A stretch of 64,000 nucleotides of DNA, taken from the NCBI GenBank assembly GCA_017993955.1, contig JAGOLR010000002.1:26-64025 (forward strand), read 5' to 3'. The translations under genes and the position numbers were made by a program. Each line of letters starts with the position of its first letter. Positions within the stretch are counted from its first letter, which is position 1. The notes under the pieces are model-generated. The model saw nothing but the letters and a program-made list of their open reading frames with translations, was not told the DNA's origin and made no database searches. Source of the DNA: Candidatus Omnitrophota bacterium (GTDB lineage Bacteria; Omnitrophota; Gorgyraeia; 2-01-FULL-45-10). Below, one piece after another: positions 5,894-43,134 of this stretch.

Positions 5894-5951
5894 AAACGAA
5901 AAATCCGGCTTTACAATAACAGGTTAAAATAGCACCCGGTACAAGAAGATG

Positions 5952-23109: not shown

Positions 23110-26100
23110 TTACGCTGACGCCAGAGTCGTCTTCCTGCCCTCATTGATCTTCTTCAGGTCGTCGTACTTCTCCACTATCGCCGACGGAGTCACGATGAGT
23201 ATCCTGCGGACTGCGTCCGATCTATCGTTATCCACCATCGGTATATTAGGAAGCTCCCCGCTCGCCGCGAAGTCCACCGCCGTCAAAAGCAGATGCGTGA
23301 TATCCACGTCTATTTGGCTGTCGAGAGACTCGCCGTATTTCTCATAAGCCGCAAGGAGTCGAGACGGATTTATACCTATAAGATACGCCCTGGCCTCGCT
23401 GTCTGTACTGCGTAATGGAGCGAACGCGGAGGACTTCTCGATAGATTCCTGAGACGCTATCGCAACGACATTCGAAAGGCTCGTTCCGGTTACGTCCACT
23501 CTGAGCTTCAGCTCGCGCGCCACATCATTATCGCTCCCCGTTATTATCTCCACATCCCCGAGGCCCCAAGATGTCATCTTTCTATATATGATCGACTTCA
23601 TCTCGTTAAGGAATCGGTTCGTCATATTACGCTGTAGAGACCCCATCTCATCATAGGCCGGTATCCAGCCGGTGCCTATACCGACCAGGAACTTCTCTTT
23701 CCGTTGTTTAGCGTTTCTGGTTTGAGCTATCAAAGATGAGAAGACACCGTTTGCCTCTATTTCATCCAGGCCTTCCATCAATTCCTCCATAGCACGCGCT
23801 GCGTCCTCGGATAGGCCTGCCTTGGCTTTCTGGCTGGCGCCGGTTATTACCTCGCTTATCCTATGCATTACCTCGGCCGTGGAACCGGTACTTTCTATCT
23901 TTCCGGATGTCACATCCCCGCCCTGCCCCATGGCGTTAACAACGTCGGCCAAACCATTTGCCTTCTTTACCATTTTGGCACGGACATTATTCACGTATGA
24001 TTCTATCTCCGCAAAAAGACCGGAATTGTCCTGACTTAACGGCTCGGATTCTCCGGTAGCTCTTTTTTGATTTTGAATGTTTCGAAGAATTTCGGCAGGA
24101 TCTCCGGACTTTGCGCTATTACTGCCCCCGTCAGTCCAGCTAAACGTTTCTATCGCGGGGAAAGAATCCATAGAGGCGAAGTAACTCAACTCTATATCCT
24201 GCATGACAAATTCATCCTCCGGGATGTCGGCGCGCTCTCTTACTATCCTGTCAAGCTCTTCGGTCATGGCAACATAACTGTCGAACGCCTCGCGACTTTC
24301 AGATATAGGATTTACAAGATACCCCAAAGTAACATGAGCTTTATACCCTCCCGGCTCGCTTATCCCTGTAGCTTCCTCTATTAGAGACCGCAGCCTATTA
24401 ACAATAGCCAGATCTTTCTCGGTCTTTGGCTTCATCCTTACTATGAGAGGGCGCGTCATGCCTGATGGCCTGAAAGCTACCACGCTTTCCGGAACAAATA
24501 CCGGAGCCTTATCCGCAACAAACCCGCGAAGCGCCTCGTAAACACGCTCGGTTACTACTTCGTATGCGGCCTGTTCCCTGGCTTTCTCTTCAGAACGGAA
24601 ACCGCCTTTTTGTATAAGCTCAACAGCGCGTTTATTAATGGCATCTTTAGTCTCTTGATTAAGTTTCTCCCTATACTTACCCGCCCAATCTGACATGCAT
24701 ATTAGGTCGCTTAACGTAATATGTTCAGAACCTGAAGCCACCGTAGCTATGAATCCTCTTCCGTTTTCTTTAGGCCAATTATTAATTACACCTGTAAGTT
24801 CTCTGAAAAGCGGATAGTTTCTTTTAGGGTGGCTTGATATTACCGTAACTCCCTCGAAAAATACAGGTTTACCGTCAGGGCTGTATTTTTTATGCGCCTT
24901 TTGTATATCGCCACGAAAAGGACCCTTGGCCTCTTCAGCTTCGGGATATACGGGTCTCATAGAGATATTTTTCTCCTGCGACGATACACCATTTACCGCC
25001 TGCGTCATCATCCCGTCTTCCGCTCTTCTTATCTCTGTGGATTGTTCCGAATTACTCCTGTGATGCAGGAATACATAGACTATCATACCGGCTACGATCA
25101 ATGCCATCGCTGCGGGAAACCAATATGAATATAGGAAGTCGAACATAGCGCTGTTAAATTCGAACTGTGCTTTTTCTATAGGGAAAGAAAACCCTTCCGT
25201 AAATGCCGGCCCGGCGAGGGTCATGGCTAGAATCAATATACCCAAGACACCTTTAAGCGTACTCTGTTTGGGCGCCGTTATGGGCCTATATAGATTGCGC
25301 CAACCCTCGGGAGACGCAGCCCTCAAGCCAAGCTCCGATTGACTACTGCCCGGCTGGGATCCCACCCCTATTTCGGTCGCATCTACATACCCGGATATAT
25401 CACCCTTCTCGCCCGGCGCTGCGGCAAGATCCCTCGTAACAACAGGCAGTCTCGGACGATGTGGAGTCCTGTTAAATATATCGCGGGCAAATACGTCTTT
25501 TTCCTGCAATTTATCGAAATATCTCCTGATCCTCTCTGCGCACTCCGTATCCACACCGTCTCCCGGGACCGGACCCAATATTGCAGATAATCCCGCCTTT
25601 AACTCGCCTACGACGCGCTGTCTTGAACCGAAAGAAACCGCTTCCGCCAAGGACCTCCATTCTTCGTCGCCGTACCAACGCACCCGGCGGTCCACTCCAG
25701 GCACATCCATGGGATGCCCGGACACGTTCAACAGATATACAAGATCCCTCAAAAGCATAGGCGCCTTGAATAAATCCTCCCATTCGACATTAGCGCCCTT
25801 ATAATACATGAGGTCGCGAAGGTTGATGAGCGAAAGAAGGTTATCGCGCGCATTCTCGGAGCCGTCGCGGGCTATATATTTACCTTCTTTATCTTTCAGT
25901 ATATCCGCCACCTTTACCAAAGAGACCTTCTTTACGGCTCCGTCGTCCCCGATTATAACGGCACCGCCGCGTTCTGTCGATTCCAGCGCTCCGCTCACGC
26001 CTGCCTTGTTAGTGGACCCGGGATCGGCCTTGACTATCAAGCCTCCCGCGAAACTATCTATGACCTCTTCTTCGGTACTGCTCTTATGCCCTACGATTAT

Positions 26101-29100
26101 CCTGTCGACATCGAATATACTGCACAGAAGCGCGGCAAGTCTCGCCTGGTCTTCTTCTGTTCCGCTGTATTTGCTCTTCTTTATACCCAAAAAATCGTAA
26201 GTGACATTGTCAGGCTCCGAGGTGTTCTTTACGTAACTATTGTAAAATCTGGCCTGTCTTCGGGCAAAGGTAGGTGAATATTGCCCGTCCGATATCATGA
26301 TAAACCATCTGTACGCGTCCCTTATCCTGCCGGACGCAAGATCCGCAAAAAGTTCATCGGATCTTCCTGTCGCTATGAAACGGTCATAGCGCCTTGCGAA
26401 CTCTTCCAGGTTGGCGTTTACCTCTTCGTAATAACGAAGGACCGATCTCTTTTCGTCTTCGGTCACATCGCCGCGCCATCCGCCGTCTTCGCCCTTCAGA
26501 CGTACAAGCGGCATGCCTTCCAGATCCACAAGCCACCCGTCCTCGTTCATCGCAGGTATCGCGTGGACCAGAAGCGCCCTTTGGGGCTTATTTAAAGCCC
26601 TCCAGAATGAAAGCCCTCTGACCCATTTCTGGGTCTCTTCATTCTTGTCCGCGCGCAGTTCGGGCAGGGCCGATACGATATCCCACGCCTTGCCGTGCCA
26701 TAATGTCCTGGCCCAGTTCCTAACTCCTTGCGCATTCAAGAACTGCCTCTTGAGGTCACTCAGTATATCCTCTTCTTCCTTGGTGAGTTCGCCGGACAAA
26801 TCCCTTATATACTCATCCACTCCGAGGGCCCTCAGGTCCTCTCCTTTTAAAACGCCTCTCTTTACGGCTACCTTAACCCATATATTGAATATCGCCTGCT
26901 CGGAGACCGAACTCATCCCTCTGTAGCCGACCGATTTTTTAACATCCTTTTCAACGGCGGATTCCTTTTCCAGTTTTTTCAATTTACCCAGAACGCTTTC
27001 GATTAGAGCGGTATTCAGATCCCTGTAAGATCTTGACAGGGCTTCTATAGCCTCTTTCTCTTCGGGCGCGAACTTATCGAGCTCCCCTAATGAGGCGTAA
27101 AACCTCTCCCAGTCACCGCCAAGTTTTTCGTTTACATATGCCGAAAGCCCCTTTAACCGCATATGGAGTTCCATGTTGCGCAATTTGCCGAGTTCGTAAC
27201 GGCCCTGGGCAAAATTCTCCAGTCGCTTCAGGTCTATGCCCATTGACTTCAGCGCTCTCTTCTGCCCGGGATAGCGCTCGAGCATCCATACATGCAGGGC
27301 TATCGAGTATTCATCCCCAAGCGAAGCTCCTAAGAACCACAGATCGTGATCGCCTAGTGTGAAGCGGTCCACAAGACTCATCATCTCTTCGAACTGACTG
27401 CCGCGGTCGAGTAGATCGCCGACGACCCATACATCGATGCCGGGATTACTCTTTGTAAGCCTGTCGAGAGAATCGGGTGAACCGTGAGTATCCGCGGATA
27501 TGAGCTTGCCGAAACCCGTACGTGATCTCGCCTTCTGCTCTTCCATGTCGTGCGCAAATAGCTCAAAGAGCTTCGTAAACCTGCCGCCGTCGTAAGTAGC
27601 GCGCCTCTCCGGAGTGACTCCCCCGTCTCTCCTGGTCATAAACTCGCCCGATACTATCACCGGGGCCTTGGTTCGGGACGCGATGAAGCTTTTGAACCCA
27701 TCGAGTTCCCCGGGCGTACCTATAGGACCGTAACGCCTGTTCCTTACATTCTCTTTATCGGAGCGTCCTTTTACAGGAGGGAATACGGTCATAGCATCAA
27801 GAACCTCTTTCGCGGTCTGGGCGGTGTCATTTACTATACAGTAAGTGAAGAGGTCCCCAAAATCACATCCAGTATGCTTCTCTATCTGTTCGTATATGTA
27901 TATGTAAGGGTTTATGCCGTTCTTCGCCCTCATGAAATCGGTTTCGTTATCATACATGGGATTGAATACGAATACGGCTATGGCGCCTCGCTCCCGCGCC
28001 CTTATTATGGCGTCGGTTATTCCTACGGGTAGCAGATCTACCAGGATACTGGTATAGAAACTCCCAGGACCTAGGACATAGAAATCTCCTTCGCCGAGGC
28101 TGTCTATCTCCTCTATGCATCTTTCATACGCCATAGGATATTCGCGGCGGTTCCCGAATGAAAGCTCAGATATCACCTTTTCATGGCGGGTATTAGTTAT
28201 TTCATCCTGGCCCACGATACTGGGGCTGCCGTCGGCAAAAGAGATAGACATCTCGCTGTCATTGAGATCTATGCTTGTGGGGAGCGCGACCATTACGTCC
28301 TCCACACCGGCTATATCGCGGCAAAACCTGTCTAGCCCGCGCTGGATACCTTCGGCCGAGAATATGCCTTTGCCGTATCCCTTCTCGAGGAGTATAGAGC
28401 CTAAAAGCGCCAGGTTCTGCACGGTATGATTGGCGAGAGGCATCCTGGGGAATAACCTGTCAACGGCCTGGGCGGATTCAAGGAGGTTTCTGGAGAAGTC
28501 GGACCAGCCCAAATCGCTTCTTAGCGTAGGGTCTTTCTCCCCTCTCTTCTGCTGATCTATCAATAGGCCCTCTACTATATCTGAGAACTTTCTACCCTTA
28601 CCGGCCAGTTCGTCTTTGCTGAACCTGTGGCCAAGTATCTCTTTTCTTTTACGGGGCCCGCGGTTTACAATAGCCTTGGCGATATCGCCTAAAGCCAGCG
28701 AATCTATATCGAGCTTATCCTTTAATAACCTCCGTATCTTCCCGGTACTCCTTCCCGCGTCGAAAGGCGTGATAGCCTTTCTGACAGACCAGCCGTATCC
28801 TCCGAAAGTATCGTCGAAGAACTGTATCCCCGCCCCTCCTCCGGATATAAGCACCTTCCTCTTCCTGGATGTACTGCCCCCCGTTATAGCGGGTAGGCTT
28901 GGGGGGGTCGCGGCTTCGGACTGACGCAGTATGGCGTTCCATATCTCTTCCGGGCTTTGCGCGGATTCTGATATATCTAAAGGCAGCGTCTCTTCCTTTT
29001 GAACCCCATCATCGTAAATAATAGCGGTCTTCTCCCCGGTCAAAATGGCCTGGCCGTAAGATATAGTCGCCCCGAGATCCACAGCCGAAGCTATACCTAA

Positions 29101-32100
29101 AAATAACGCTATGGCGGCAAGCCATCGGCCTAGATAAGACCTCTTCTCGATACGGCGCGGAGAGGCGCTACCGGGTCGTGCCTCTTCCATACCCGCAAGA
29201 AGCACATTATGCGCTTCCTCCAACTGCGGGGCCTCCATCATGCCATCCCTGAAGAATGACGACCCCGCCACAAATATATTGGCACCCGCAGTCAGCGCAC
29301 TCTTTATGGTATCGCCATTTATGCCTCCGTCTATTTCTATAGGCCCATCATAACCGTAATAGAACCTGAGGCGTCTTATATTGGACAAGGCTGAAGGTAT
29401 GAACTTTTGATTGCCAAGTCCCGGATGGACGCTCATCTGCAGGACGATATCTATATCCTGGCGGTGCTCCATTATAAATCTCCCGGCCGAGTCTATTTTT
29501 GTATTCGGATTAAGGGCAATACCCGCCATGGCTCCTCGGCTTTTTATATAACGTAAAAGCCTTAAAAGCTTGCCTTTGTCCTCGAAACCCTCCCAGTGGA
29601 GCGTCACTATACCGGCGCAATTATCAAGATATTTGGCTATGTAGCTTTTTGTAACGTTCTCGTCGGTATCCATAATGTGGAGATCAAAAAGAGGCGTGAC
29701 GCCGAGCTCGCGCCTGTGGCACTCGTCCAGAACATCTTTTAAGAACCGCGGCGTTATTTTGTCGGTCGTATCTTTGCCGCCTTTTTGCACTATCGCGTTA
29801 CCTCTGCCCCCGCTGTTATTTATGCGGTCAAGATGCACGATGGGCCTGCGGCCTTCTCCGGCGAAGATCTCTATGGCATCAACGGTACTTTTGACGCGCT
29901 CTCCGTCGGGTACATTCAATACCGAAGGCGATATCACGAATTCGTCTGCTACAAGCGACGCATGTAAAGGCAACACGTACAGATAATATACTACTGCCAA
30001 GAGCGGTATAAATATGAGCCAGATAGGATGTAAGAATACGCTGCTTAAGATCCCATCAGAAAATATATCCTGAGCGGCATCCTGTGCAAACGCCCGGCCC
30101 GGGAAAAGCATCGCGGCAGTTAATACTCCTATAGTCCCGAGAATATTACGTCTGTCAGTACCCCGTCCGGCTGGACGATATTGGGCCTGGACGTTTCCGG
30201 CCGGCCCCTCATCATCGAATGAGGCAGGCGAGCTACTTTTAACCTTTATCTCGCCATTCCTGTATTCGACATCGAATAGATTCATTATGCCGGCCCTATT
30301 GGGATCAAGTCTCATGTTATCCCAAGAGCTTACTATACGGGCTACCCCATTTTTACCGGCTACAGCGTTCTCCACGTCCTGCCATCGCCGCAGCACAAGC
30401 GATCTTGCCTTATGCGCCGGCAGTCCGGCCAACCTCAAAGCCTCCATGGCTTTTTTAGCGACCAGTATCTTCGCCGCATCCGAGTGGGAAAAGACGACGG
30501 GCAAGCGTTCAGGGCTAAAGCGATTATTTTCCGCAAACCACATCATCCCCCTGATATAGTTAGACCTGCTTCCGCTTCCTTGAGAGTTAAGGATAGATTT
30601 ATAATATGAGGAGCGGAATAAGGGCCATTTCCAGAAGTTCGTGTTCCACATTATTAGAAATGCCGTCAACGCTAGAGCCGCGATGGCAAGTTGCGGGTGG
30701 GTGGATACCTGCTCCCATATGGCGGATAATACGCCTTCGCCACTCTCTACAACAGCCCCCCTTGTCACATCTTCCGCAAAGACCGGTCCTGATGTAAAGA
30801 TAGCGGCAAGTAGCGCAAATATTAAGATCCGCATATGTGCGGCATAGCCATTTTGGCCTATTTGACGATCGTATCCGGACTTTGACACAGAATCGCTTCT
30901 TCTGCCGTAGTCTGGATCGAGATCCAGGTCCACAAGTGCCTCCGCTATGGCCTCGCCTCCTTCGACATGGGAAGGCGTATTATTTATATCCTCAGCCAGA
31001 GCCCCTTCTCCCTTAATGGCTATCATAGACCATGAGCCGTTATATTGAAGTCCGCGTATCATCGTGCTTCCCATGGATTCGAGAAGTTGACGGGCCTCCT
31101 CTACAACGGGATCAGTGAATTGCGTATTGCCCCAGCCGGCGAACCCGCCCTCGTCAGCTACCGCCAAAAGCACTATCTCGCCGTCGGGAATGCTATTCAT
31201 ATAATCGATGAACTCTATGAAACTCTCAACGTTGGCGCGATCGCCGCCGTAAGTATCGAAGTTCCTGGTCTCTTTCATTCTTATGCCGGTATTTCTATCA
31301 AGGATGGCTACATTGATACCGCGTCCGCCGGTGCCGCCACCGCCCCTAAAATATACCGTTTTTTCTCCTATGCCGAATGAGGCGTCGCCATGCGAAGTCG
31401 CCGTAAGTAACGGCCTGCTGTTAAGCGCCACGGCGGCTTGGCCTTTCGTAAATCTGTCCTTCAAAGCATTAAAAGCCTCTTTAGGATTGCCGTCTATATC
31501 GGCAACCCCGAAATATTCTTCGTCGTTACGACCATCGGGTTGTCCGGAGTTGTTCTCACCGCTGGTATCCTGATGGTTCGGGAACCCCAGCTTCCACCAT
31601 TCATCACGCAATTCAAAGACAAGCCCTCCTATGGCTGTGCCGGCGGTCCTCTCGGCGGAAAGCTCGAAAAATATCTCGTCCCAGAGCCATCCGTTCACCT
31701 CTGCCTGCATGGCCTCATTTTCGTCTGGTATCCTGTGGTCAAAGGAGTCTGCCCCGAATTCAGATATAAAGATCGGCTTGTCCGATATGGAGCGCCATTG
31801 TTGGAACACGTCTTCCATGCTTGTACCCCGGTATATACTAAGACCCCAGACATCTACGCTCGGAACGAGCGTATTTACAATATCGGTGGTATATGCGTAA
31901 CCGTTCATCTCTAACGGGAATTCTTCCGGGCTTAATACGTGGTAACCCGGCACATGCGGGTCTGCGAATACAGTAGATACCGGGTGGTTATTATCTATCG
32001 ACTTTATAAGTTGCGCGGCCCTCTCGGTGAAATCGGCAGCATCGAGGCCGGATGCGAATTTTCCGTAGTAGTAATTGATATCCCATTCATTTCCTATAGC

Positions 32101-35100
32101 CCACATAAGAATGGCCGGATGGTCCTTGTAAGCCTCCACTACCCTTCTAACATTATCCATATCGGCCACTACCCCGTATCGGGGAGAATCTACGGCCATG
32201 ATGAGCTTTATGCCCATCCTGTAGAAAGCGTCCAGTATCTCGAAGGCCTCGGGACCGGTCCCAAAATCGTAATAAACTCTCGCGACATTTACGCCCATCC
32301 TCGACATGAGCGAAAGGTCGGCTTTGTACCATTTATAAAATTCCTGGGTTATTGTCGATACGGGCGCGCCCTTGGTGTGAGGCGACCAGTTGACCCCGCG
32401 CGCGACAAATGAATATTCCCCGCCCAGAGTGCCGTCCGGGAGCCTCTCCCGCACGAATAAACGCCTGTCATGCTCTTCTGCGTAAGCCAGGCTCGGAGAC
32501 CTTGGCACCGGCGGCAGCGTCTCGAGCATTATATATCCCGCGAATTGCGATACAAGGCCTGCCCTGTCTTTCGCCTGACACAATATCTCCTTTATACCGT
32601 CACCTTCTGAAAGGGTCATCGCCTTTGAAGTAACGGGTGTCTCCCATGATGTCCAGTTCTCCCCGCCATCCAGAGAGAACCTCAAAGCGCTCAAACCCGA
32701 ACCGGAATCCCGAGCGTTTATATTGACGGTGACACTCCTTGAATCGGTGGTCTCTTCACCGCCGTTTATCGTCAAAACGCCGGTGGGCGGTATCGTATCC
32801 AGGCGTATATCAAAGCTGTATTCTGCCCTCCCGCCCGAGGAATTGGTCTCGACTATAACGCGGGTATTGAGCCCTTCCGAAAGCTGGAAAACAGTCTGTC
32901 TGGGCTCTCCGTCTACCGTATAATCCACAGTAAGCACAGGCGAAGTCGTTATCTCCGGTATCTGGCTCATGATAGCTATGACGGGGTTTATCACGTTAGG
33001 TTTATTACAACCTGTCTGCCCGAGCAGGGCTGGCAAACCCAGGGATGCCAACATAATATTTACAAATGTCCTGCGTGAAGTAAGGCCGCTATCAGAGACG
33101 CTACCGGCTTTACCGATCTCTACAAAAAGTCCGGGCCATATGACTTTCTCTATCGTCCGTCTTACCTTATTCAATATGGCCGCATCTTTAGACGGAGCGT
33201 TTTGAGGCTCCGCGATACCGGCCGCCTCGGCAACCTCATCCAATATGATGACAGTCTTATCTTTAAGCTCTCCCGGGAATCTCGCTTCCAGGGTGGCTTG
33301 CAATCCTTTGTTTACGAATATTATTACGGCAGCCTCTCGCACCTCTTCCAGCGTAGCGGGCCTTGAATCTACTTTCACCGGCTCCTCGCCGAACTCTTGA
33401 CGGAACGCCTCCGCAAGAGGAGCATTTGTAGCCCCCCAACCGAGCTCGCTTTGATCGCCGGCCGCGCCGGAGCTCACCTTCATATATCTAGACAGTTCAT
33501 TTTTATTTATGAGATGGTTAAGGACCATCTGCATGGCGGGACTTCTGTTGTAATTAGAATTACAAACGCATAGTATGGGACCGGCCGGTCTAACCCACTT
33601 GGACTCGGTTTCGGCTACATAGCCCACTCTATCTGTAATACCGTTATTCTCTTCTACAGAAAAAGTATGCTCGTCAATAAAAGCCTTCTCCTCACCGGAT
33701 CCGGCGAGCGCCCAGATGTCAGCCGTTTCGATCTCAGGCGACATGGGCTTTATGCCTTCGGCGACCTCCCACGCGGTATTAGAAAAGGTGGCTTCCTTGG
33801 CTACAAGGTGGCGCATCCTAAGCGACAACTCTATGAGACCGTAACCTTTAGAGGCAGATCTGGACGAACTCGAGGCGTCTGCAATATATTGATAGATAAT
33901 AACCCCGATCAGAACCGCCAGAAAGACGCTAACCCCGAAGATGACATAATGATTAAATGTAAAATTTTTGAGTGCCGCAAATGAAAGATTTAAGATCACC
34001 GGCTGGACGGATTCCGTAAACGGTCCCGCGGCTTGCGCTGAAGCCGAGCCGGCGATAAATACCGCGGTTAAGAACGCGATCATTGGAGCAAGGCCTCGTA
34101 AATTACCCGAACTTCCGGCATCTTTTCTTTCCGCCGGGGCGTTGGCGATGGCTTTGAAGCCTTTCAACGCATCATCAACCATAGGTCTTAGTCTCGGATC
34201 CAGCTTGGCCGCATGCCTAAGATCTCTTTCGCCCTCGTCTTCCATATTAATAGCAAAATATAAAAGTCCCCTGTTATAATATGCGTTTGCAAAGTTAGGA
34301 TCGATCTTTATGGCTTTATTAAAATCATACAGCGCGAGACCTAGTAGGCCTGGCCCTTGCACGTAACTAAAACCACGGTTATTATAAGTAGATGCTTCGA
34401 TCTCATTCTCGGGGCTCAACTCAATAACCTTCGTCAGATCCTGAATAGCCCTAGGATAATCCCTTAATATGTCAAAGTATATACTACCCCTCATCTTGTA
34501 CGCATTAACATAACCTGGGTCTATGCTTATAGCGCGGGAAAAGTCTCGTAATGACTCCGGATACCTGCCCGCCACAAAATAACATGTCCCCCTATTATTG
34601 TAAGCATCGGGATTGTTGGGATTAAATTCTATAATTTTGGTAAAGTTATATATAGCTTTTGGATGATCCAGACCTAAGATGCCGCATGCAGCCACAAGAT
34701 TTTTATAAGCGGTATCGTTCCGGCCATTGAGTTCTAATGACTTGATAAAGTCTGATATCGCTCCAGGCACTCTGCCCAGCGCTAAATGGCATATTCCTCG
34801 TAAATTGTACGCTAGATCAAAATCCGGATTATGTTCTATGGCTTTATTAAGCGCGGTTAAAGCGTCATTATATCTATCTTGCTCGAAAGCCCTTTCTCCC
34901 TGCGTATAATATTTTGTGGCTTCGCTGATCCGGGCCGCGATATCACCTGCGTTCTCTTTGACATCCACATCGCCCGCTCGATGGCTGGGCAATATGCTGA
35001 ATAAACCGGATATTGCAAGAAATATAACCGCTAACCGCATCATAACTTTCATGGCAATCTTCTTTGATCTTGTGGCGCGATCTTCCTGATATACCACCCC

Positions 35101-38100
35101 GGAATTGTCAGCCAAGATATAACTTAATATTCGCCATGTTATGTAAGATGGTACCAATGCGGCAATTACTAATAAAAACGTTCTGGGAGTCACTGAAAAC
35201 CACGAGAAGTTGAATGCTTCTGACCCGCTTTGCGCAAATGCCGAGCCGGAGGCGAGCATGGCGGCGAGGAAGATGCCGAGCGTGCCTGTTATACCCGGGC
35301 TTTTTCCTTGCGGAGATTCGGGTTTCTCCGCAGTAGCCGTTTCCTCTTGGGGAGCATCCTTGATCTCTTCTTCGGCTCCTTCGGCCGGAACCCAATATCC
35401 CGCAGAACTTCCTCCGCCACTATAAGCGTCAAAGTACCCAGAATCGCTGTAGTCAGAATATCCGGTGTCGTTGTTGTTATCTTCGTACGAATTCCGTACT
35501 AGATCTTCATGATGAAGCCAATTTTTCCCACCGGTAATGCCGGCCATTAAGAAAAAGGTGGCGATGACAGGAAGCATCATTAAACAAGCGCTAAGAAAAC
35601 CGGGGAAGATTCCGATTATGTAGCTGAAAACTACCTCGAATCCGCTATGCGAAGTTTGAAGAGACGTGGCGCAGGCGATTGTGAAGTTAATTACCAAAAA
35701 TAATAGCGATGGCAACAATCCCAGACACATAGCAAGATCATTGCGTTCCGAGTCATGCGGCCTGCGTGAATATAGGCCAGCGATTACCCCTGTTATGGCC
35801 GGTACAACAAACATGAAAGTTATAAACGGATGCGATGATATCGCAAAATAAAAAGTTGATAATATTTTAGTTGCGCCGATATTTGTCGCGATACCGTCTG
35901 CCCATGCGCCGCTGGAGGCGAGCATGGCGACGAGGAGTATGTCGAGTTTGCCGGCCGTGCCCGGCCCATTCTTAGTCGTCCCTCGTCCTTCGTCCCTCAT
36001 CCCTCGATCTTCCATACCGTTCTGGGGAACGTCCCCGGCCTTGTTTCGCTTTTGCCCTTTCACTACATTAAGAACGGCGGGGGCATCTGTTATCGTTACA
36101 GTAGTTGAACCATATGAATTACCATAAGCGTCATACTCTTCCTGTTCTTCTTCGTGAGTTTTTGCCGGTACATATTCTACAGTAAAATCATACCCATTCT
36201 TCAAGCATTCCTTAATAACGTCCATCTGAGATGACGTAATATTCGCATCGTTGCCATCAAGAACATTAAGGGTATTCAGAATGCTTTTTACCAAGCCCGG
36301 GTCCGAAACCCTTTTAACGGCTTCCGCTATACGTTCTTTCTCGTACCCAACCCCCCATTGATTATGAACCTTATCGCTTTCTATCCTCTCCAATGCTCCT
36401 ACAACATAATCCGGCATTGTGCTGTCTATAAGCTCCTGCAGATCATGTCCCATAGATACGAGAATAGAAGCGCACACATCGCTTTCAAGAGCTTTAATCG
36501 CAGCGGCGCGAAAACTGGTTCTAAGATGAATGATGCATTTTTCAGTAATGCGTGTACGTAATTCGACTAATAAGCCATCATCGGCTCCAAGTTTTTTTGC
36601 CGCATCTATGATTGGTTTTTCCACATCACTATATAACCCATTAGCAAAGTTACCATGATCTATATACTGCTCCAGTAATGAGATAGCTCGCGGATCGCCG
36701 AAATTACCGAGCTCTACGACTACCTCCTCAGCAACATATCCGGAGGTGTAGTATTTCAACAATACATCCTTATGAAGCTGGAACAATTCTTCCCGCGTGG
36801 CGCCAAGATCTTGATACGCCCTTATCAATGCCCTGTACACAAAACTGCTCCCGGATTCGGCAAGCGGAGACAAAAGTTTCATGACAGACTTATCACCAGA
36901 TTGCCCCAAAACCTCTACTGAAGCTGCTAGTCTATCTCCCTCAACTGAACGCCAATTTTTAACAAGCCTAAGCGCCTGAGGATGGGATATTTTTTCGCCT
37001 GACCTTGGCATCCCGATATCTTTACGTGCAGTTTTATTCGCAAGTCCGGGTTTTTCGCCAGAAGATGCCTCCGATACAGGCTTTTCCATTCGAGAAACTT
37101 CTCCTACGCTTCTTTTAAAAGCGTTTCCCATAACGATATTTAACAAAGAAAGTCCCGCCAGAGGTAGCCAGAAGCCCGAACAGTAAGAAAAATATTCGGT
37201 CGCGAGAACTGTTAGGAATAGATATGCGGTCAGGCCCAAAAACTTATGATCTCTGAAATAGGAGACGGCTTTAAGCATTACCCTGGAAAGAGTCGGACGG
37301 TAATTATCTAGATATCCATACGCAAAGCTCGCTACGATTACCCCGAAGCTGACCGGATGAAAAGGCGCCATTAAAAATACAACTGCCGGGACGCCAACTT
37401 TGGCAGGATTTATATCGCGCTTAAATACCTTCTTTGCTATGAGCCATATAATGGCGCTCGCCAAAAAGACTATGGCTGTAACGATTATGCCATCTATGAA
37501 AAGCTGTCCTAAACTTAAAAGTGGCGCACCGTAAGGTGTGACCTGTATCGGGAGCGTGCCGGTAGGACCTGCCGGAAGAGGCATATGCCCTCCCATGGAA
37601 GGACCTCCGAAATACGACGGTTGCGCAGCTGCCAATCCGGACGCGAGCATGGCGGCGAGGCCGCCTAACAGGAAAGGAATAAAAGAATGCGCCCGCAAGG
37701 ATGGTGTGGACCGGCGACCTCTGGTCTCGAGCCATTTTTTGAGTGCTTCTATCTCTGAGAGACGCCATCTCTTCTTAGCCTCAACCTTAGCTGCGTCGCC
37801 TTTTATCTCTTCCCATCTGGCGAATTGGGCATCTACAAAAAGGTCCTCGCCTAAAACCCTGTAGTTATCTAAAGGCGGCAACGTACGCCTGAATATATCC
37901 ACGCCTGAAATAGGAATCGCTCCCGAATATGCGGTAAGTTTTCTCCTTATGACCTGGGCCATCGGTAGTTTCTCGCCCCTCGCCGCCTTTTTCAGTGTTT
38001 CAAGCCCCACCACTTCGTAATTGGCCTCAAGCCCCGGAGCGATCTCTTTGGCGGTTACCTTAAGCTTGGATGATGCAATGCGGGTGAACTCCTTTTCCCC

Positions 38101-41100
38101 ATCCACGACTACTACTATATCTATATCGTTAGGGCTATCGGACCATGCGTAACTACCCATCAGATATATAGAAACCAGGGGCTTATCCGCGGAAATCATC
38201 CCATTCTCGTATAGGGTAGCGACGACGGCCGGGATCTTGGATCGGATAATTTGTATTTTTGAAACGGCCTTATCGGTCTTATCTTTGCTGTCGGCAATAC
38301 TATGCCACATCCAGCTCCTGGTCTTAAGGATATCGGCAATGGACCTGATGCTCCGTATTACCATTCCTTCGCGCGACAGGTCTAAAGTCCCCGCGTCCAG
38401 TTCCCAAGGAGCTACATCCGGTGCGTATTCGGGAGCGAGCCTTCCCGTACGTATGGCTTCGGCCACACGGTCATGCACTGCCTCAGGCAGCGAAGACGCT
38501 CCGCCCAACCTGAGCACAAGCTGCGCAGGTTTATCAAGCACAGTATTGCTATACTGCATTGGGCTACCGTACACATCATAATATTCCTCTTCCTCCTCAT
38601 GTGTACTGGGCGGGATATATTCGGCCCTGACAGCCTGGGCCGCCTCTATGAAAGATGTTACGAGCTCTATTTGCTGCAAGGTCATAACCGCATAATCGTC
38701 ACTATAACCGTATGTGCGCGAACCTTCCTTGACATGCGAAAGATACGGGACCATAGAAGCAAGGAGCGGGTTGCTTATGGCAATAAGAGACCCGGCACTC
38801 GCAGACCTGACCCTGCTATCGGTGTCGCCCACCCCACTTAACAATGGTATGACCGAACGCTCATCTTTTATCTTTCCTAAAGACGCCGCGGCGGCGGCGC
38901 GGTCTAACCGGGAGGATTTATCGGCCAATATGGCTATAAGCGGCTCCGCAGCGCGGATGTCGCCGGATTCGCCTAGCGCCGTTACGGCTGCGTTGGCTAC
39001 ACCTTTATCGGGGTCGGTAAGCGCGTCATTGATAAGCTCAAACGCGGATCGATCCTTTATCGCGCCTAAAGTCTGCACAGCTGATTTACGTGTATTGGCA
39101 TCCTCATCAGAGAGTAGAGTCTTTAATGCCGGTATAGCCGGTGCCCCCACTTCACCCAGCTTATTCCAGTCACCGGTAGCGACCGCATACGCTATCTCTT
39201 CACCTTTATTTACGGGTTTCCATTCCAATTTTTTCAGCGAATCCGCCGCTATCCTGCGGTTAACGGTATCCGAATCTGACAGGGCTACTACTAGGGCAGG
39301 GGCGGCTTTCTTGTCCCCTATGGCGCCTAATGCCTCTGCAGTTTTACCGCGGACCGCCTTTGACGGGTCCTGGATTAAAGGCTCTAACGCCTTAACTGCT
39401 GTGGAAGCTTTTACCCTGCCGAGTATGGTCGCCGCGCCGGCGCGTATATGCTCATCCGCGTTCTTCAAAGCGGCAATAAGGAGCGTCTCCCTGCGAGGAT
39501 CCTGAATATTGATTATCGCGGTGACAACCGTCTGATGTAATTCAACCTCTGCCAATAAACCGATAAGGCTTTCCAGGGCGCGCGGATCCTTTATCTTCCC
39601 AAGCGCCTCCGCGGCCGATTTCCTTACGCCCTCTGCCGGATCTTTCAGTAATCCTACGAGGGGGATAACAGCCCGCGAATCGCCTATCTCGCCCAGCGAC
39701 CATGCCGCGAGCTGCCTCTTATACTCGTTCTGCGCCGCAAAACATTTTATGAGGTCCTGGACAGCCGGCACATCTATATTGGCCAGAGCTTCGGCAGAAG
39801 CCCGCCTTATCGCGTGTTCCCGGGAATCAAGATTCGATATCAATGCGGCAATAGCCCTCACTTCTTTGATCTTACCTAAAACACGCGAAGATGAAACTAC
39901 AACCTCTTTATTCCGGCTTGAGAGCCCGGCCAATAAACGCGGGGTAGCGCGCGTTCCGAGTAATACAAGCGCCTCTTCCGCCCTCGCAGGAACTCCGTAT
40001 TCATAACTCCCAAGCCGCCACATATGCCAGCGCACAGGGAAAAATAAACGCCATATGATAAAGAACGCGGCGGTACCCAGCGCCAACCCTGCCATCGACG
40101 CGACAACCACGAATCCCAAAGGATGCGCTGCAAAAAGCTCATGGATGATTGATGATAATGTCTTTGTGCCAAAATTTGATGTGCTTTCGCCTGCAAACGC
40201 CGAAGCTGAGGCGAGCATGGCGGCGGTCGTGGCGATAAGAAGAACAGGAAGTTTCGTCGTTCGCGATTTGCCATCGACTTCTTCAGCAAATCGTCCCGAG
40301 CGAAGCGAGGGATCTTGTTCGTAGTTCGTATTTCGGATAATATTAGAAGTATCCTCAAAAAGCCGGTCGATTCCGGAATCTATAGTTCTAATTTCATCGA
40401 TCGCTTTCTCCATATCGCCTTCCCCACCCTGCATTATCCGAGTAAGGTTTTCGACGGCCGTTTTCCGCGCTCCATCTAATCTATCCAGTTCGGTTCCGTC
40501 TATCAAGGCAGGCATATTCTCATACGTTCTATCAAGCAGCGGGACCTGATCAATAACCGCTTCAGCAGGCACTGTGGTATTCGGTGGATAGGTGTCTAGT
40601 CCTGTTTTTTCCGAGTTGGGGACCGCAGAGCCTTCGCCTTTTTTAAGAAACGGCTTAACATTAATAGATAAAACTGACTGTACAAGCCAGTCGCTTCGGT
40701 AAGGATATGACGCATACTCTTTCCTGTCCGGATCCCAAACATAGATCACGGCGCGGCGCCCATCTACGGTCGCAATAAGACTGCCATCGCCGATAGGATA
40801 CGAATTCTGGAGCCAGTCAACTACATAATTATCTCCGTTGACAAACGGCAATCCCGAGAAATCATATATCTTCGCCACTTTATAATCTTTATCCAGGAGA
40901 ATTACGCGGCCGTTCTGGCTATCGGACAGGATATATCCTCCGTTATAATAGATCGCCCCATGCGGTTTATTAAGGTCTTTCAATACAATGCGCGTCCGAC
41001 CCGTAGCCTTCTCTATCTCGATAAGCTGGCCCGGATCAAAAAGAGTGGCCATTATAGTATTCCCATCACGGCCGTAATCGGCCCAGTTCGGACCTGCGCC

Positions 41101-42948
41101 ATAGAAAGCTCTTTCCAGGCCGACCGGCGAATCGACCTTACTTATATCTATGACAACACGGTAGTCCTGCCCGGGCTTTAGATCTTCTCTGACCTTATTC
41201 TCAAATCTCCTAATATATTCTTCCCTTGATAGCACTGTAGTATCCGAAAAACCCGCGATAGGCCGGTCTTTTTCGGTAAGCGTCATGCCGAATTTATTCT
41301 TGCCATACCCGTTCTCCCATGCCAGCCATTCGTAAACTACATTTCCTGATACGATATCTACTTCGAGAATACGGTCCAAGCCGGTGCTAGCAACCAATAT
41401 TAATCCTGGATCGGCAGGATGAAACTTAACCGTGTGTAACAGTTTAAATTCCGGGTTCCTGATGCGTTTTTTAATCTCTTTTGTAGATGTATCGATAATG
41501 ATTATCTCTTCCGAAAAGACTACGGCTATGACGTCATCGCGTACGGCGATATCCCTCGGCTCAACGCCGGATATCTCCCATAGACTTCTGGAGGTCTCCG
41601 CGATATCGTTTACAGTCATAATAAATAAAGAGGTGGGCTCGCTTATCGGCCTTGCTGGCTCGTAAAGCTTACCCGTATCTTTATGTATCCCGATCCTTCT
41701 TGCCTTAAGTTCCGGCGAATTAACGCCTTTCACGACAAAAGCTACCGGAATATTACCGCCAAGGCCACTGACTTCCTTAAAGTCATCGGCAATGCGGACC
41801 ACGGTAGGCTGCGCGGTGGATACGCTGTCGTCCGTTTTTATCTGAGAAAATGAACGCGACGCCATAAGCGGTAGCCCCAAGAATAAGAAAGCCAAAAGAC
41901 CACCTATACCTGCCCCTAAAAATACGCTTATAACTAAGGTCATCACAAATTTGACCGACCACATATCTATACCGGTTACCCCCTCAGCAAATGCCGGCAA
42001 GGCCACGAGCATCATAATTAAAGAGGAAGCGATTATCTTCCGAATACTTATAGTCTTTTCTGGAGCTAATTGGTGGCTTACTTGGGCTATGGGTTCGGAG
42101 ATTGTGACTTGCTTATCGTCTGTTAGATTGCTTCGTCGTTCCGCCTCCGGCGGAACTCCTCGCAATGACGGACTAGACGTCTCGCGTCTTACGTCTAACG
42201 TCTCACCTCTTACGTCTTGCGTCTTGCGATCTTCAACAGTCGTCTCTCTCGATTTGCCATCGGCTTCTTCAGCAAACCGTCCCGAGTGAAGCGAGGGATC
42301 TCCTTCATCCCCCATCTCTCGTTCTTCCACAGACGTCTCACGTCTTACGTCTAACGTCTCACGTTCTTCCACGGACCCCGCCACAGACGTCTTACGTCTT
42401 GCGTCTTGCGTCTCACGTTCGTCATAATCCTCCGGCAGGACCTTCACTGCGTACTTGTCCCCGATCACCCAGTCGTATCCTGCAAGCTCCCTTATAGCGA
42501 GATTATCTTTCTCGGAGATATATATGAGAGACTTCTTGCCATCCGGCGGGTTGTAAAGCATGGTGATAACGCCGTCTTTAAACCTTACATGGGAAAGGTC
42601 GATGCCGTATAGCGCCCTGTATGTCTTAAGGCGCCTAAAAAGAGCTCCTTCGATATGCTGTTCCGGGAGCTGCCCTATCTTGTGAAGATCGTCGCCCATC
42701 AGGTATTTGGCGATGTCGTATATAGCTACTACAAGCCCCCTCTCCGCGAGCACCGATGCCTGAAGTTCAGCGGCGAATTCGTTGACCGGCTGAGTCTGGC
42801 CTACCGATGGAAGCGCCAAGGTCGAGGCGGAAGGCTGGCGCGGCGTGCCGTCTTCCGGATGCGCCCAACTGATATCAAGAGAGAGAAAAGCGGCGATGAG
42901 AATGATGGAGATGACTTTAATAGCGAAGTGGGAACGGAAATTGATCAT
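23110..42948 (-). CDS. giant (6612 aa) signal-peptide-bearing modular protein; enzyme and scaffold modules separated by TM hairpins with internal signal-peptide-like segments: beta-propeller-like region, HEAT, nucleotidyltransferase-like, TPR, LMW-PTP-like, Ig-like plus clan GH-A glycosidase, ILEI/PANDER-like, ribulose-phosphate 3-epimerase, CofD/YvcK, class III FBPase-like metallophosphatase, 2H phosphoesterase
   Basis: Uninterrupted 19.8-kb ORF from ATG 42948-42946, with AAGGGGG SD 6 nt upstream, to TAA 23112-23110. N-terminus [31 protein letters not shown]. Domain coordinates were checked by back-translating [10 protein letters not shown] at 29413-29442. Confidence 0.9.
   Translation of the reverse strand: [6612 protein letters not shown]
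24304..24741 (-). other. 2H phosphoesterase (LigT-like) domain
   Basis: Two HxT/Sx motifs about 130 aa apart: SEHITLSDL and KAHVTLGYL. Confidence 0.45.
27049..27576 (-). other. metallophosphoesterase of the class III fructose-1,6-bisphosphatase (Bacillus Fbp-like) type
   Basis: [49 protein letters not shown] compared with Fbp [45 protein letters not shown] (GDxxDRG ... GNHD/GDHD ... LWxGA). Confidence 0.55.
27934..28866 (-). other. CofD/YvcK (UPF0052, LPPG:FO 2-phospho-L-lactate transferase / gluconeogenesis-factor family) domain
   Basis: [14 protein letters not shown] (compare vvlGGGtGlsxLLrGL); [15 protein letters not shown] (compare vtvaDDGGSsGrLRr); [26 protein letters not shown] (compare iiGPGSlyTSilPnLlvpgi.eAl). 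Confidence 0.65.
29239..29931 (-). other. ribulose-phosphate 3-epimerase domain
   Basis: DLHIMD (compare DVHLMV); [28 protein letters not shown] (compare VLVMSVNPGFGGQKFIPSxLxKIRxLR); [30 protein letters not shown] (compare IEVDGGIN...AGANxxVAGSAIF). Confidence 0.8.
31114..31356 (-). other. ILEI/PANDER (FAM3)-like GG domain
   Basis: [67 protein letters not shown] matches the GRGINV...FDTY...SIPDG.IVL.AV.DE pattern of the ILEI domain. Confidence 0.4.
31459..32826 (-). other. Ig-like (Big-type) domain followed by a clan GH-A (GH5/GH2-like) glycoside hydrolase TIM barrel
   Basis: Ig-like: [58 protein letters not shown]. GH-A: acid/base [10 protein letters not shown] (NE) and nucleophile IFISEFG (xSEFG). 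Confidence 0.5.
33229..33591 (-). other. low-molecular-weight protein-tyrosine-phosphatase / ArsC-like module (CX5R P-loop)
   Basis: [19 protein letters not shown] compared with the LMW-PTP signature V-C-L-G-N-I-C-R-S-P-M-A-E (C-X5-R-S-P). Confidence 0.4.
34174..34926 (-). other. TPR repeat array
   Basis: Repeated 34-aa units with AY.N.G......G....A..D..KA....P consensus ([14 protein letters not shown]..., [14 protein letters not shown]..., [14 protein letters not shown]...). Confidence 0.75.
38749..39861 (-). other. HEAT repeats (PBS-lyase type)
   Basis: Repeated AxALGxIGDxRAxxPLIxLLxDxxxxVRxxAAxAL units, e.g. [44 protein letters not shown]. Confidence 0.7.
42125..42171. repeat. copy of the intergenic palindromic repeat element embedded in frame in the coding sequence of gene 3 (encodes [17 protein letters not shown], aa 259-275)
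   Basis: agattgcttcg-tcg-ttccgcctccggcggaa-ctcctcgcaatgacgg: the same arms as the intergenic copies, with central palindrome TTCCGCC-TCC-GGCGGAA. Confidence 0.8.
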
Positions 42949-43015
42949 TATAGACCCCTTGGTTTTGTTAAATCCAAATTACAAATTTCAAAATCCAAAT
43001 AAATGAAAATCTTCT

Positions 43016-43104
43016 CTTCGTCATTGCGAGGAGCTATTGCTAGACTCAGGCGACGAAGCAATCTATTTTTTAGATTGCTTCGGCCCTTCGGGCCTCGCAA
43101 TGAC
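43016..43104. repeat. nested-palindromic repeat element, copy 3 (full unit)
   Basis: cgtcattgcgaggag-ctattgctagactcagg-cgacgaagcaatct-attttttt-agattgcttcg-gcccttcgggc-ctcgcaatgac. Confidence 0.85.
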
Positions 43105-43134
43105 AAATAAGAAATCGTATTACTCAATAACAAT

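Follow-up and report, generated by a model that had tools for sequence, protein, structure and literature searches.

A repeated signal-peptide-like hairpin cassette between the modules of a 6,612-residue Omnitrophota protein, with candidate signal peptidase I sites

M13 (Ff phage) procoat, the product of gene VIII, enters the membrane as a helical hairpin, after which leader peptidase cleaves it; its signal ends in SFA/AEG (slashes mark cleavage sites) and is followed by an acidic periplasmic loop of about 20 aa. The protein encoded by gene 3 (g3) of the window, i.e., the whole 64-kb stretch of Omnitrophota DNA analysed here, contains a unit of the same layout, with a basic n-region, a small-x-small Sec signal, an acidic loop, a transmembrane (TM) helix and a basic flank. 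The likeness is one of layout and no sequence homology is claimed; procoat is a 73-aa stand-alone precursor with an N-terminal signal, whereas the g3 unit is internal and present in ten copies between large enzyme modules. The second comparable case is FbcH, the cytochrome b-c1 precursor of Bradyrhizobium japonicum, in which one ORF reportedly gives rise to two membrane proteins that are separated at an internal signal peptide. It differs from g3 in having one site, two products, an exported downstream domain and no repeated cassette. To our knowledge, there is no precedent for a bacterial multi-site signal-peptidase polyprotein beyond this single-site example.

In PMC9360617, M13 procoat is named as a signal-peptide-bearing preprotein, and papers on procoat insertion and on leader peptidase are among the references. 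Multi-site processing is described for the polyproteins of Flaviviridae, of pestiviruses and of the bunyavirus M segment, where (see, for example, PMC3437442 and PMC8002126) internal signals alternate with stop-transfer helices as they do in g3, so that a single long precursor crosses the membrane repeatedly, and host signal peptidase cleaves behind every internal signal, which becomes the C-terminal anchor of the preceding product. These viral polyproteins belong to the eukaryotic ER, their cleavage has been demonstrated and their large domains are lumenal, whereas g3 is a cellular bacterial gene, its signals are copies of one repeat, its domains are predicted to be cytoplasmic and its cleavage is putative.

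Giant proteins encoded by tandem giant genes and carrying many TM helices have been reported from the same phylum as g3 (West-Roberts et al. 2023, bioRxiv 10.1101/2023.11.21.568195; Nielsen and Lui 2026, bioRxiv 10.64898/2026.06.07.730766; Seymour et al. 2023, PMC10066038). They share with the g3 locus sugar-metabolism modules (a starch synthase in the neighbouring gene g2) and a conflict between predicted topology and enzyme content, and post-translational cleavage has already been suggested for them. Those papers treat proteins of at least 10,000 aa and attribute the proposed cleavage to C39/S8 peptidase domains; the Archaeovorin/Dockerin-type giants (West-Roberts 2023) exceed 30,000 aa and carry SecA_DEAD, C39/S8, and TSP3 or dockerin repeats, while g3, with 6,612 aa, has none of these Pfam families. 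A repeated signal-peptide-plus-TM hairpin like that of g3 is not mentioned in these papers, and term searches of them found no text on conserved N- and C-terminal caps or on signal peptidase I (SPase I) sites.

Gene 3, its modules and its capped family

The gene is one intact ORF with no interruption, and its features are collected in Table 1. The initial annotation had described distinct modules between signal-like segments, and Pfam/NCBIfam bear this out for HEAT, TPR, low-molecular-weight phosphotyrosine phosphatase-like (LMWPc), GH2_C-like, ILEI, ribulose-phosphate 3-epimerase (RPE), CofD/YvcK-like and FBPase_2/Metallophos modules. The 2H module that it also named is weak, with a Pfam E-value of 0.036 that falls under the cut-off and two HxTx motifs spotted by eye. 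The RPE module matches solved RPEs at the His of DLHIM and the Asp of EIDGG and keeps the conserved residues in its aligned part. After the HEAT module comes a weak nucleotidyltransferase-like region (aa about 1540-1745), and the Ig-like repeats share 30-47% identity with the adhesin-like giants P0001/P0003. A word-index search with aa 1-5000 of g3 returned three weak partial matches, to the HEAT and Ig-like regions, with ILEI also matched in P0003; the same search with the hairpin and C-cap alignments returned none, though true relatives exist, which reflects the limits of the tool. No NCBIfam model matches the caps or the hairpin of g3, no Rfam family was found within the 64-kb window, and the AF2 model of the N-cap domain is poor (pLDDT 60).

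Table 1. Features of gene 3, in order along the protein (coordinates are those of the window; slashes mark predicted cleavage sites)
Feature	Residues (aa)	Nucleotides	Strand	Remarks
Gene 3 (g3)		23110..42948	-	Single ORF of 6,612 aa
N-cap helix	8-29	42862..42927	-	FAIKVISIILIAAFLSLDISWA/HP; itself signal-peptide-like; family-conserved as F(R/K)xISLxLIxTFIxLDISWAYPPE
N-cap domain	30-175	42424..42861	-	Conserved in P0006, P0008 and L001 gene 2
Hairpin h1	299-364	41857..42054	-	Predicted site AFA321/E
Hairpin h2	897-972	40033..40260	-	Predicted site AFA919/G
HEAT-repeat module	about 985-1420	38689..39996	-	Pfam/NCBIfam
Hairpin h3	1752-1843	37420..37695	-	Predicted site AAA1775/Q; 44-aa Pro/Gly-rich loop; more TM helices after
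Hairpin h4	2333-2394	35767..35952	-	Predicted site AWA2350/D; then small polytopic TM block
Hairpin h5	2553-2609	35122..35292	-	Predicted site AFA2572/Q; reference copy of DNA repeat D1
TPR module		34174..34926	-	Pfam/NCBIfam
Hairpin h6	2950-3027	33868..34101	-	Predicted site ASA2971/Q
LMWPc module		33145..33576	-	Borderline Pfam score
Internal Tat-like (SRRTF) and lipobox-like (LLGQTG/C) signal	3287-3313	33010..33090	-	Sequence reading
Exported-type modules: Ig-like repeats, GH2_C-like TIM barrel, ILEI		31009..32871	-	
Hairpin h7	4037-4105	30634..30840	-	Predicted site VFA4058/E
Module S7		30154..30633	-	No assigned function; 2 copies in P0008, 1 in P0010
Hairpin h8	4267-4334	29947..30150	-	Predicted site AFA4288/Q
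RPE module		29239..29931	-	Pfam/NCBIfam
h9	4605-4635	29044..29136	-	Signal-like helix, ASA4622/V; no second TM helix
CofD/YvcK-like and FBPase_2/metallophosphatase-like module		25549..28881	-	Pfam/NCBIfam
Hairpin h10	5897-5963	25060..25260	-	Predicted site AFT5917/E
2H-phosphoesterase-like module		24073..24948	-	Weak; 61% identity to the same P0006 module
C-cap	6300-6612	23113..24051	-	Helical bundle and alpha/beta domain; family-defining; 34 Omnitrophota loci

The modules of g3 lie between two caps that define a wider protein family, namely an N-terminal helix with the motif F(R/K)xISLxLIxTFIxLDISWA(Y/H)P and a C-terminal domain of about 310 aa with GxGTGWxPGY and LRST(D/E). Both caps are found in g3, P0006, P0008, L001 gene 2 and most loci in which the start of the ORF is on the contig. 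All 34 family loci come from Omnitrophota MAGs, and the family with its conserved N- and C-terminal caps is Omnitrophota-specific. Comparison by hhalign gave no support for a C-cap shared with the neighbouring genes g2 (E = 0.023, 48 columns) or g4 (E = 0.71).

The cassette itself is very rare. When 1.84 billion representative proteins were searched exhaustively with a profile, it turned up in seven only, two of which are fragments of g3 itself, and the hairpin HMM had no match in the neighbouring giant ORFs or in other reading frames of the 64-kb window; this occurrence pattern is far beyond chance. The same HMM detected no cassette in 34 distant family loci, so that it is not family-wide. 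Distant members join their modules by other kinds of TM segment or by none (L033, with 2,222 aa, has no internal TM segment), which means that module separation is not required for the family. At L001, the CofD/YvcK and FBPase-type module is encoded by a separate gene of 2,122 aa.

The internal cassettes and their predicted cleavage sites

Ten internal signal-peptide-like segments were identified in g3, lying 299-5,897 residues from the N-terminus. At least nine, with AxA motifs, had been listed in the initial annotation, and all nine are present where it placed them, give or take a few bases; the count itself was one short, since the segment at aa 299-321 was missed (the first helix of h1, IRKIIASSLIMMLVALPAFA/EGV, nt about 41986-42054). 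A second hydrophobic helix, said there to follow 20-30 aa later, is indeed found after nine of the ten segments, the exception being h9, as that listing had implied, but the loop is shorter in several cases (10-44 aa in the g3 hairpins, and 8-44 aa as the overall range of the cassette). The elements follow each other in the order basic n-region, short h-region, S-G-x-A-x-A, acidic loop, second TM helix (15-36 residues) and basic flank. When the ten g3 segments are aligned, the two Ala residues of AxA are the only nearly invariant columns, and the segments are copies of one homologous cassette and not independent signals. No prepilin, sortase or exosortase-type motif was seen on reading the cassettes, and signals of these kinds were dropped.

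An artefact, in which mis-assembly or fused pseudogenes would have joined separate genes with the internal signals as their N-termini, is very improbable. The gene is indeed split in further assemblies that represent this organism or one very close to it (P0004, 812 aa; P0007, 851 aa; locus L040), but these split calls stem from a contig of 2.3x coverage and leave the g3 frame abruptly, as expected of sequencing errors. Likewise, a Met lies within the n-region of two of the ten first helices (h6 and h7), whereas the other eight cassettes have no start codon at the right place, for which reason internal translation starts were also rejected. Furthermore, 19.8 kb without a stop codon cannot arise by chance in a sequence of 49% GC, and in the independent relatives P0006 (3,332 aa, on two contigs) and P0008 (1,321 aa) a single ORF, bounded by the same caps at its two ends, likewise holds several cassettes.

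The -3/-1 rule of SPase I (PMC9360617) was compared with 26 cassettes from g3, P0005, P0006, P0008 and L001 gene 2. Position -3 is occupied by Ala in 22, Val in three and Ser in one, and position -1 by Ala in 22, Thr in two, Ser in one and Gly in one; with 0.74 and 0.85 bits, these two columns have the lowest entropy over -16 to +5, whereas position -2 is variable (2.14 bits). Gly is found at -5 in 19 of the 26 cassettes and Ser, Gly or Pro at -4 in 18, while +1 is Glu, Gln or Asp in 21 and Pro in none. Only 3 of 130 residues at +1 to +5 are Lys or Arg, compared to 11.3% across the whole protein. In nine of the ten g3 copies, the uncharged run up to -1 spans 14-23 residues, including a c-region of about 6; the run of h8, which the Arg in PGRAFA broke in the scripted count, was counted by eye as 16 residues ahead of that Arg. 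Every sequence requirement of an SPase I site is present and conserved. The segments also have the basic n-region, the short h-region, the polar c-region with a helix breaker, the small -3/-1 residues and the absence of Pro at +1 that are typical of Sec-type signal peptides, whose h-regions comprise about 7-15 residues, although all ten are internal and not N-terminal in the precursor. Each is preceded in the chain by hundreds to thousands of residues that have probably folded, which speaks against cleavage.

Matches from a metagenome DNA-pattern scan, filtered with the hairpin HMM, point to the same resemblance. Among those listed, which are mostly unrelated GC-rich sequences with no added family member, are ordinary N-terminal Sec signal peptides of unrelated proteins, such as MRTLILGVAAAMLAAGPAFA/QAQT and that of a TolC-like precursor, which match the first-helix part only. 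Within the family, h6 of g3 and the P0005c cassette have the loop and second TM helix in common, whereas their first helices differ (MIAFLTAVFIAGSASA versus ILLAAMLASGSVVA); orthologous cassettes bear non-orthologous first helices, all of which retain signal-like features. Part of the AxA conservation could stem from recent duplication or gene conversion instead of selection, h2 to h5 sharing GCCGCCATGCTCGCCTCC.

Membrane topology and the fate of the chain

Charges were summed over 22 hairpins, taking the 15 residues before the first helix as the upstream flank. The upstream flanks contain 58 Lys/Arg versus 31 Asp/Glu and the downstream flanks 54 versus 43, while the loops are acidic, with 19 versus 56. 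Because of this charge distribution, the loops are predicted to be periplasmic and the modules to lie on the cytoplasmic face, a placement that fits the RPE module with its conserved His and Asp as well as the CofD, FBPase and LMW-PTP modules. The procoat-like arrangement of signal, non-basic loop, TM helix and basic flank is seen throughout g3, except at h9. The initial annotation had left open a polyprotein or a hairpin tether; the hairpin geometry is supported by the charge asymmetry, which also names the side.

Two regions conflict with this topology. The N-terminal helix looks N-in/C-out, which would place aa 30-298 outside and invert h1. Furthermore, a Tat/lipobox-like signal precedes the exported-type modules and would invert h7. 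Set against the twin-arginine consensus S/T-R-R-x-F-L-K and the lipobox consensus L-[AS]-[GA]-C, it has an h-region and the sole [ST]RRxF motif (SRRTF) in the three complete giant proteins g2, g3 and g4, but its lipobox is non-canonical at -3 and its position is internal, not N-terminal. This embedded Tat/lipobox-type precursor may hint at a second kind of internal signal.

We give an even chance to the following account, which is read from the sequence: g3 is a member of the Omnitrophota-specific capped family, in which a narrow clade joins its modules by a procoat-like cassette that would insert as a hairpin and probably be cut by SPase I. Each cassette, on leaving the ribosome, would insert via YidC/SecYEG like M13 procoat; the loop alone would be translocated, and the enzyme modules would remain cytoplasmic and tied to the membrane. 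The A-x-A would then face the periplasm in an SPase I context, and most of the ten sites would probably be cut. Were all of them used, about 11 membrane-anchored products of 321, 598, 856, 575, 222, 399, 1087, 230, 334, 1295 and 695 aa would result. Every product would start with a brief periplasmic stretch that leads into a TM helix, and its last segment would be the next signal-like helix. In h9, which has no second helix, and in P0010, whose h7-type cassette has a degenerate first helix, the cassette departs from this account. As a more specific proposal, g3 would encode a cellular bacterial polyprotein in which SPase I cuts about ten internal repeat-derived signal peptides and frees membrane-anchored enzymes that are plugged in or removed by recombination at a DNA repeat, a bacterial counterpart of the flavivirus strategy; this we hold tentatively, at somewhat less than even probability.

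The main rival is that the hairpins insert and are never cut, so that about 20 helices would hold the cytoplasmic modules of a 6,612-aa chain at the inner membrane as a tethered metabolic or regulatory array, with the small residues that close helix 1 serving a tight turn or helix packing. The hairpin geometry and charge asymmetry agree with an intact chain too, function as a single chain is the simplest explanation of one ORF, and in distant members of the family the modules stay fused although such cassettes are absent. In surveys of long Omnitrophota proteins, moreover, the 'TM-only' class of membrane-anchored cytoplasmic domains is the commonest (46%). A role in turns or packing does not, however, predict small-x-small residues at -3/-1 with a variable -2, Gly at -5, no Pro at +1 and few Lys/Arg at +1 to +5, and the uncharged runs, at 14-23 residues with the polar c-region counted in, are on the short side for a stable TM helix. 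SPase I discriminates little among N-in/C-out helices that end in this way, so that a special reason would be needed for escape from cutting. The sequence features moderately favour SPase I cleavage, and we regard an uncut chain as possible but doubtful.

The DNA repeat and module shuffling

A family of 40-nt direct DNA repeats (D1), found independently of the protein analysis, coincides with eight of the ten segments at an identity of 63-88%, its copies starting at 25195, 30082, 30772, 34033, 35230, 35896, 37621 and 40189; h1 and h9 are outside D1. Identical codons are used in h2 to h5, among them CTC, a minority choice for Leu (16% of all Leu codons in g3). The comparison of module order across homologues that the initial annotation had proposed shows that relatives have the modules of g3 arranged differently, the breakpoints falling at the signal-like helix, and the 40-nt repeat appears to be where crossovers occur when cassettes are gained, lost or reordered.

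The coincidence of D1 with eight sites, the codon identity of h2 to h5 and the mosaic order with junctions at the first helix are also what would be expected if the repeat were a recombination substrate and the likeness to signals incidental. We consider this unlikely, since diverged copies (63-65% identity, and h1 and h9, which are not in D1) keep the n-h-c layout and AxA, and since the repeat does not cover the basic flanks, the acidic loop or the second helix, which nonetheless form with it a complete, coherent insertion unit. A role at the DNA level is compatible with either fate of the protein and would be an addition to it, not a replacement.

Compared with the initial annotation, g3 thus presents one homologous cassette in ten copies, an additional Tat/lipobox-like internal signal and an Omnitrophota-specific family with shuffled cassettes. 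The giant genes of Omnitrophota are a recognised puzzle, as to whether they act as a single chain or as cut products, and the predicted topologies often put cytoplasmic-type enzymes outside. In this respect g3 is a small, tractable case, with ten precisely placed and conserved SPase I-type sites, predicted fragment sizes, a procoat-like insertion unit and an explicit hypothesis of cleavage. If the chain is not cut, the cassette would be a modular way to staple an enzyme array to the membrane, and the question would be how canonical SPase sites escape. If it is cut, g3 would be a bacterial polyprotein that signal peptidase processes at multiple sites, supplying stoichiometric sets of membrane-anchored enzymes from one gene in very small cells. 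Whether or not it is cut, repeat-mediated shuffling of cassettes between fixed N- and C-caps would offer a concrete mechanism for the growth of long genes.

Giant genes and repeated hairpins in g3

The window carries four tandem giant genes on the minus strand, with a GC content of ~49% throughout and uniform skews; g1 is absent from the ORF list because it runs past the left window edge. In its N-terminal part, g1 shares 31.5% identity with g2 aa 90-542; this part also has a close match in the third gene of a relative locus, L001, which indicates a conserved gene order of g3-like genes followed by a g1-like one. The C-termini of g2, g3, and g4 end in small residues, as do those of relatives (..ATLAAA, ..ALQSA, and ..QALAAA), reminiscent of C-terminal degron or tail-specific-protease motifs. 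In public assemblies of low coverage that come from this organism or a very close one (P0004, P0007, and locus L040), g3 and g4 are broken into shorter gene calls by apparent frameshifts; since such assemblies split giant genes, database searches see fragments only.

Coordinates of genes and sequence features (window positions unless a locus is named)
Feature	Position (nt)	Strand	Length or protein position	Remark
g1	~5645 to left window edge	-	at least 1,881 aa	
g2	5952-22859	-	5,635 aa	C-terminus ..LILRAA (nt 5955)
g3	23110-42948	-	6,612 aa	hairpin cassettes; C-terminus ..TTLASA (nt 23113)
g4	44283-63974	-	6,563 aa	C-terminus ..LISSAA (nt 44286)
Tenth g3 segment			aa 299-321	
h9			aa 4605-4635	no second helix
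Tat-like segment of g3	33010-33090	-	aa 3287-3313	TSRRTFVNIMLASLGLPALLGQTGC
Family regions of g3			aa 1-175 and 6300-6612	
Repeat D2 in g3	42166-42426	-	aa ~175-260	ERETLDVRRETS-like units
Repeat D3 in g3	40254-40320, 42240-42306		67 nt	88% identity
Region between g4 and g3	42948-43428	-		
ORF in this region	43135-43428	-	97 aa	
CofD-FBPase gene	L001:10659-17027		2,122 aa	

All nine signal-like segments that the initial annotation had reported in g3 are present in their places, and a tenth had been missed. In each, K/R-containing residues lead into an uncharged stretch of 14 to 23 residues that has small-x-small at its end, and an acidic or polar residue comes next. A second TM helix had been proposed 20 to 30 residues after most of them; nine of the ten are indeed followed by a longer hydrophobic helix (TM2) and then K/R, h9 being the exception, but the spacing is 10 to 44 residues. 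The ten segments, which align with one another, are homologs, the two Ala of AxA being the only nearly invariant columns. A DNA-only repeat finder placed 8 of the 10 in one 40-nt family, and an HMM built from all ten gave zero matches in g2, g4, or other reading frames.

Predicted topology and module content

Summed over 22 hairpins, the 15 aa upstream contain 58 K/R and 31 D/E, the loops 19 and 56, and the 15 aa downstream 54 and 43. Positive residues flanking TM helices tend to stay inside (the positive-inside rule), so these counts place the loops in the periplasm and both hairpin ends in the cytoplasm, which would keep every module on the cytoplasmic face. This predicted placement agrees with the module content. 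The RPE module scores 98 bits in Pfam and E = 2e-24 against a solved RPE, and its DLHIM His and EIDGG Asp align with that enzyme; the other modules include CofD/YvcK-like, FBPase_2/metallophosphatase, LMW-PTP, HEAT, and TPR. M13 procoat has the same layout as the cassette unit, a likeness that we regard as functional rather than as homology.

g1, g2, and g3 each have a signal-like N-terminal helix that appears N-in/C-out, an orientation which in g3 would invert h1. g2 is a single ORF with only about three hydrophobic segments, in which a starch/glycogen synthase (GT5 plus GT1) follows the signal-like N-terminus (..DILWA/QDAV) with no TM helix between; beyond the synthase come a GHMP kinase, a glycogen phosphorylase-like region, and a PEP-utilising domain. 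Cytoplasmic-type enzymes thus sit behind an apparent export signal. Published surveys of giant Omnitrophota proteins describe a conflict between predicted topology and enzyme content of the same kind. Furthermore, g3 harbors a Tat-like segment with twin-arginine SRRTF, an h-region, and a lipobox-like Cys; [ST]RRxF occurs nowhere else in the three giant proteins that are complete. Directly downstream are exported-type modules, namely, Ig-like repeats (30 to 47% identity to adhesin-like giants), a GH2_C-like TIM barrel, and ILEI. Export of the segment it leads would keep h7 from inserting as drawn, unless the second helix of h7 alone acts, as a stop-transfer sequence. At the h9-equivalent position, L001 gene 2 has two tandem signal-like helices.

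Cassette shuffling and the cap family

Seven cassette-bearing proteins emerged when 1.84 billion representative proteins were searched with a profile: near-identical g3 fragments from other assemblies (P0004 and P0007), contig-edge fragments (P0005, P0009, and P0010), and the full-length P0006 (3,332 aa, at least seven cassettes) and P0008 (1,321 aa, four to five cassettes). When g3 and its relatives were mapped to one another by BLAST, mosaic module orders became apparent. In P0006, the h8-RPE cassette (63% identity) lies ahead of that protein's HEAT module, and the 2H module (61%) is followed by an extra Nudix-containing insert and the C-terminal cap. P0008 carries the cassette of S7, the module after h7, twice between caps, and in P0010 the end of g3 module 2 (aa 1590-1778) is followed immediately by the h7 loop/TM2-S7 unit (aa 4021-4286). 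P0005 is missing the beta-propeller-like module and has an h5-like first helix fused to the h1 loop/TM2. The CofD-FBPase cassette, internal in g3, is in L001 a separate gene with its own caps, adjoining P0006; this gene also has a GT2-like region (by eye) and, before CofD, tandem signal-like helices (..SSAAFA/DSV.. and ..SSAASA/SDV..) with no ordinary second TM helix. The breakpoints lie in or adjoin the first helix, which is the DNA repeat. Orthologous loop/TM2/module units have differing first helices that all retain signal-like features, which points to a constraint on helix function rather than on exact sequence.

Repeats also occur in linkers. L040, a near-identical locus, has an 87-aa GIY-YIG gene call at the 97-aa ORF between g4 and g3, and the adjoining repeat element translates as SLRGPKGRSNL...IAPRNDE; similar peptides are encoded in frame by linkers of g3 (SSPSLRGVPPEAERRSNL) and by P0005 (MSLRGPEGRSNLKEIASSPDDKTIAPRNDEG). 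The linker peptide DPSL(H/R)SGRFAEE.DGKSR, encoded by D3, occurs twice in g3. It looks as though coding linkers have taken up a small repeat element. The stretch from the N-cap domain to the first hairpin contains D2, a coding repeat that is low in complexity and highly charged.

g3 and its full-length relatives have two terminal caps in common. The N-terminal one comprises MI(N/R)FRxHxxIK...LD(I/V)(A/S)WA(H/N)P and ~150 further aa; the C-terminal one spans ~310 aa. Scanning one genome per GTDB species for the C-cap returned 34 loci at 23 to 35% identity, all in Omnitrophota MAGs, some of which carry the label Planctomycetia. Their ORFs span ~700 to >3,300 aa, and most of those whose start is on the contig begin with the N-terminal motif (LDISWAYPPE helix); between the family caps lie ~400 to >6,000 aa of variable modules. 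The cassette was not found in these distant members, some of which have other TM segments and others none. The family is therefore phylum-wide and the cassette an innovation of a narrow clade, which has no close representative among GTDB species genomes. No Pfam or NCBIfam model covers the family, and the C-cap fold gave no informative structural neighbor. The end of the C-cap (its final ~50 residues) has a marginal match in g2 (E = 0.023) and none in g4 (E = 0.71).

Signal-peptide likeness and processing

We anchored 26 cassettes from g3, P0005, P0006, P0008, and L001 gene 2 at the predicted cleavage site. Positions -3 (A22/V3/S1; entropy, 0.74 bits) and -1 (A22/T2/S1/G1; 0.85 bits) are the most conserved columns between -16 and +5, with F12/W5/others at -2 (2.14 bits). 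Gly occupies -5 in 19 of 26 cassettes and E/Q/D occupies +1 in 21, Pro never, while K/R account for 3 of 130 residues at +1 to +5, versus 11.3% over the entire protein. A scan of metagenomes for the coding pattern, with an HMM filter, also matched ordinary N-terminal signal peptides of unrelated proteins, over the first-helix part of the cassette only; by sequence, the internal helices are indistinguishable from real Gram-negative signal peptides. The pattern at these predicted sites matches the SPase I -3/-1 rule (PMC9360617).

We see an even chance that the segments insert as hairpins and are cleaved at most sites: all sequence determinants of an SPase I site are present, forming the most conserved part of the cassette, and the h-regions fall short of the length usual for stable TM helices. 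In procoat, the enzyme is not hindered by a TM helix that comes after a short loop. Several points speak against cleavage: the signals are internal, modules of distant relatives stay fused without signal cassettes, degenerate copies exist (h9 and P0010a), and part of the site conservation may reflect recent duplication or conversion. That the same hairpins act as uncleaved staples is deemed somewhat less likely than cleavage, though a serious possibility.

Giant, TM-rich, multienzyme Omnitrophota proteins are already described, with cleavage suggested via C39/S8 peptidase domains. g3 lacks every domain that defines the named giant types, and the catalogued proteins are longer. Two preprints (bioRxiv 10.1101/2023.11.21.568195 and bioRxiv 10.64898/2026.06.07.730766) and a Nature Microbiology paper (PMC10066038) do not describe a repeated signal-peptide-plus-TM cassette, and a search of them by term found nothing on SPase I sites or N/C caps. 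If cleavage were shown, it would represent a processing strategy new for bacteria.
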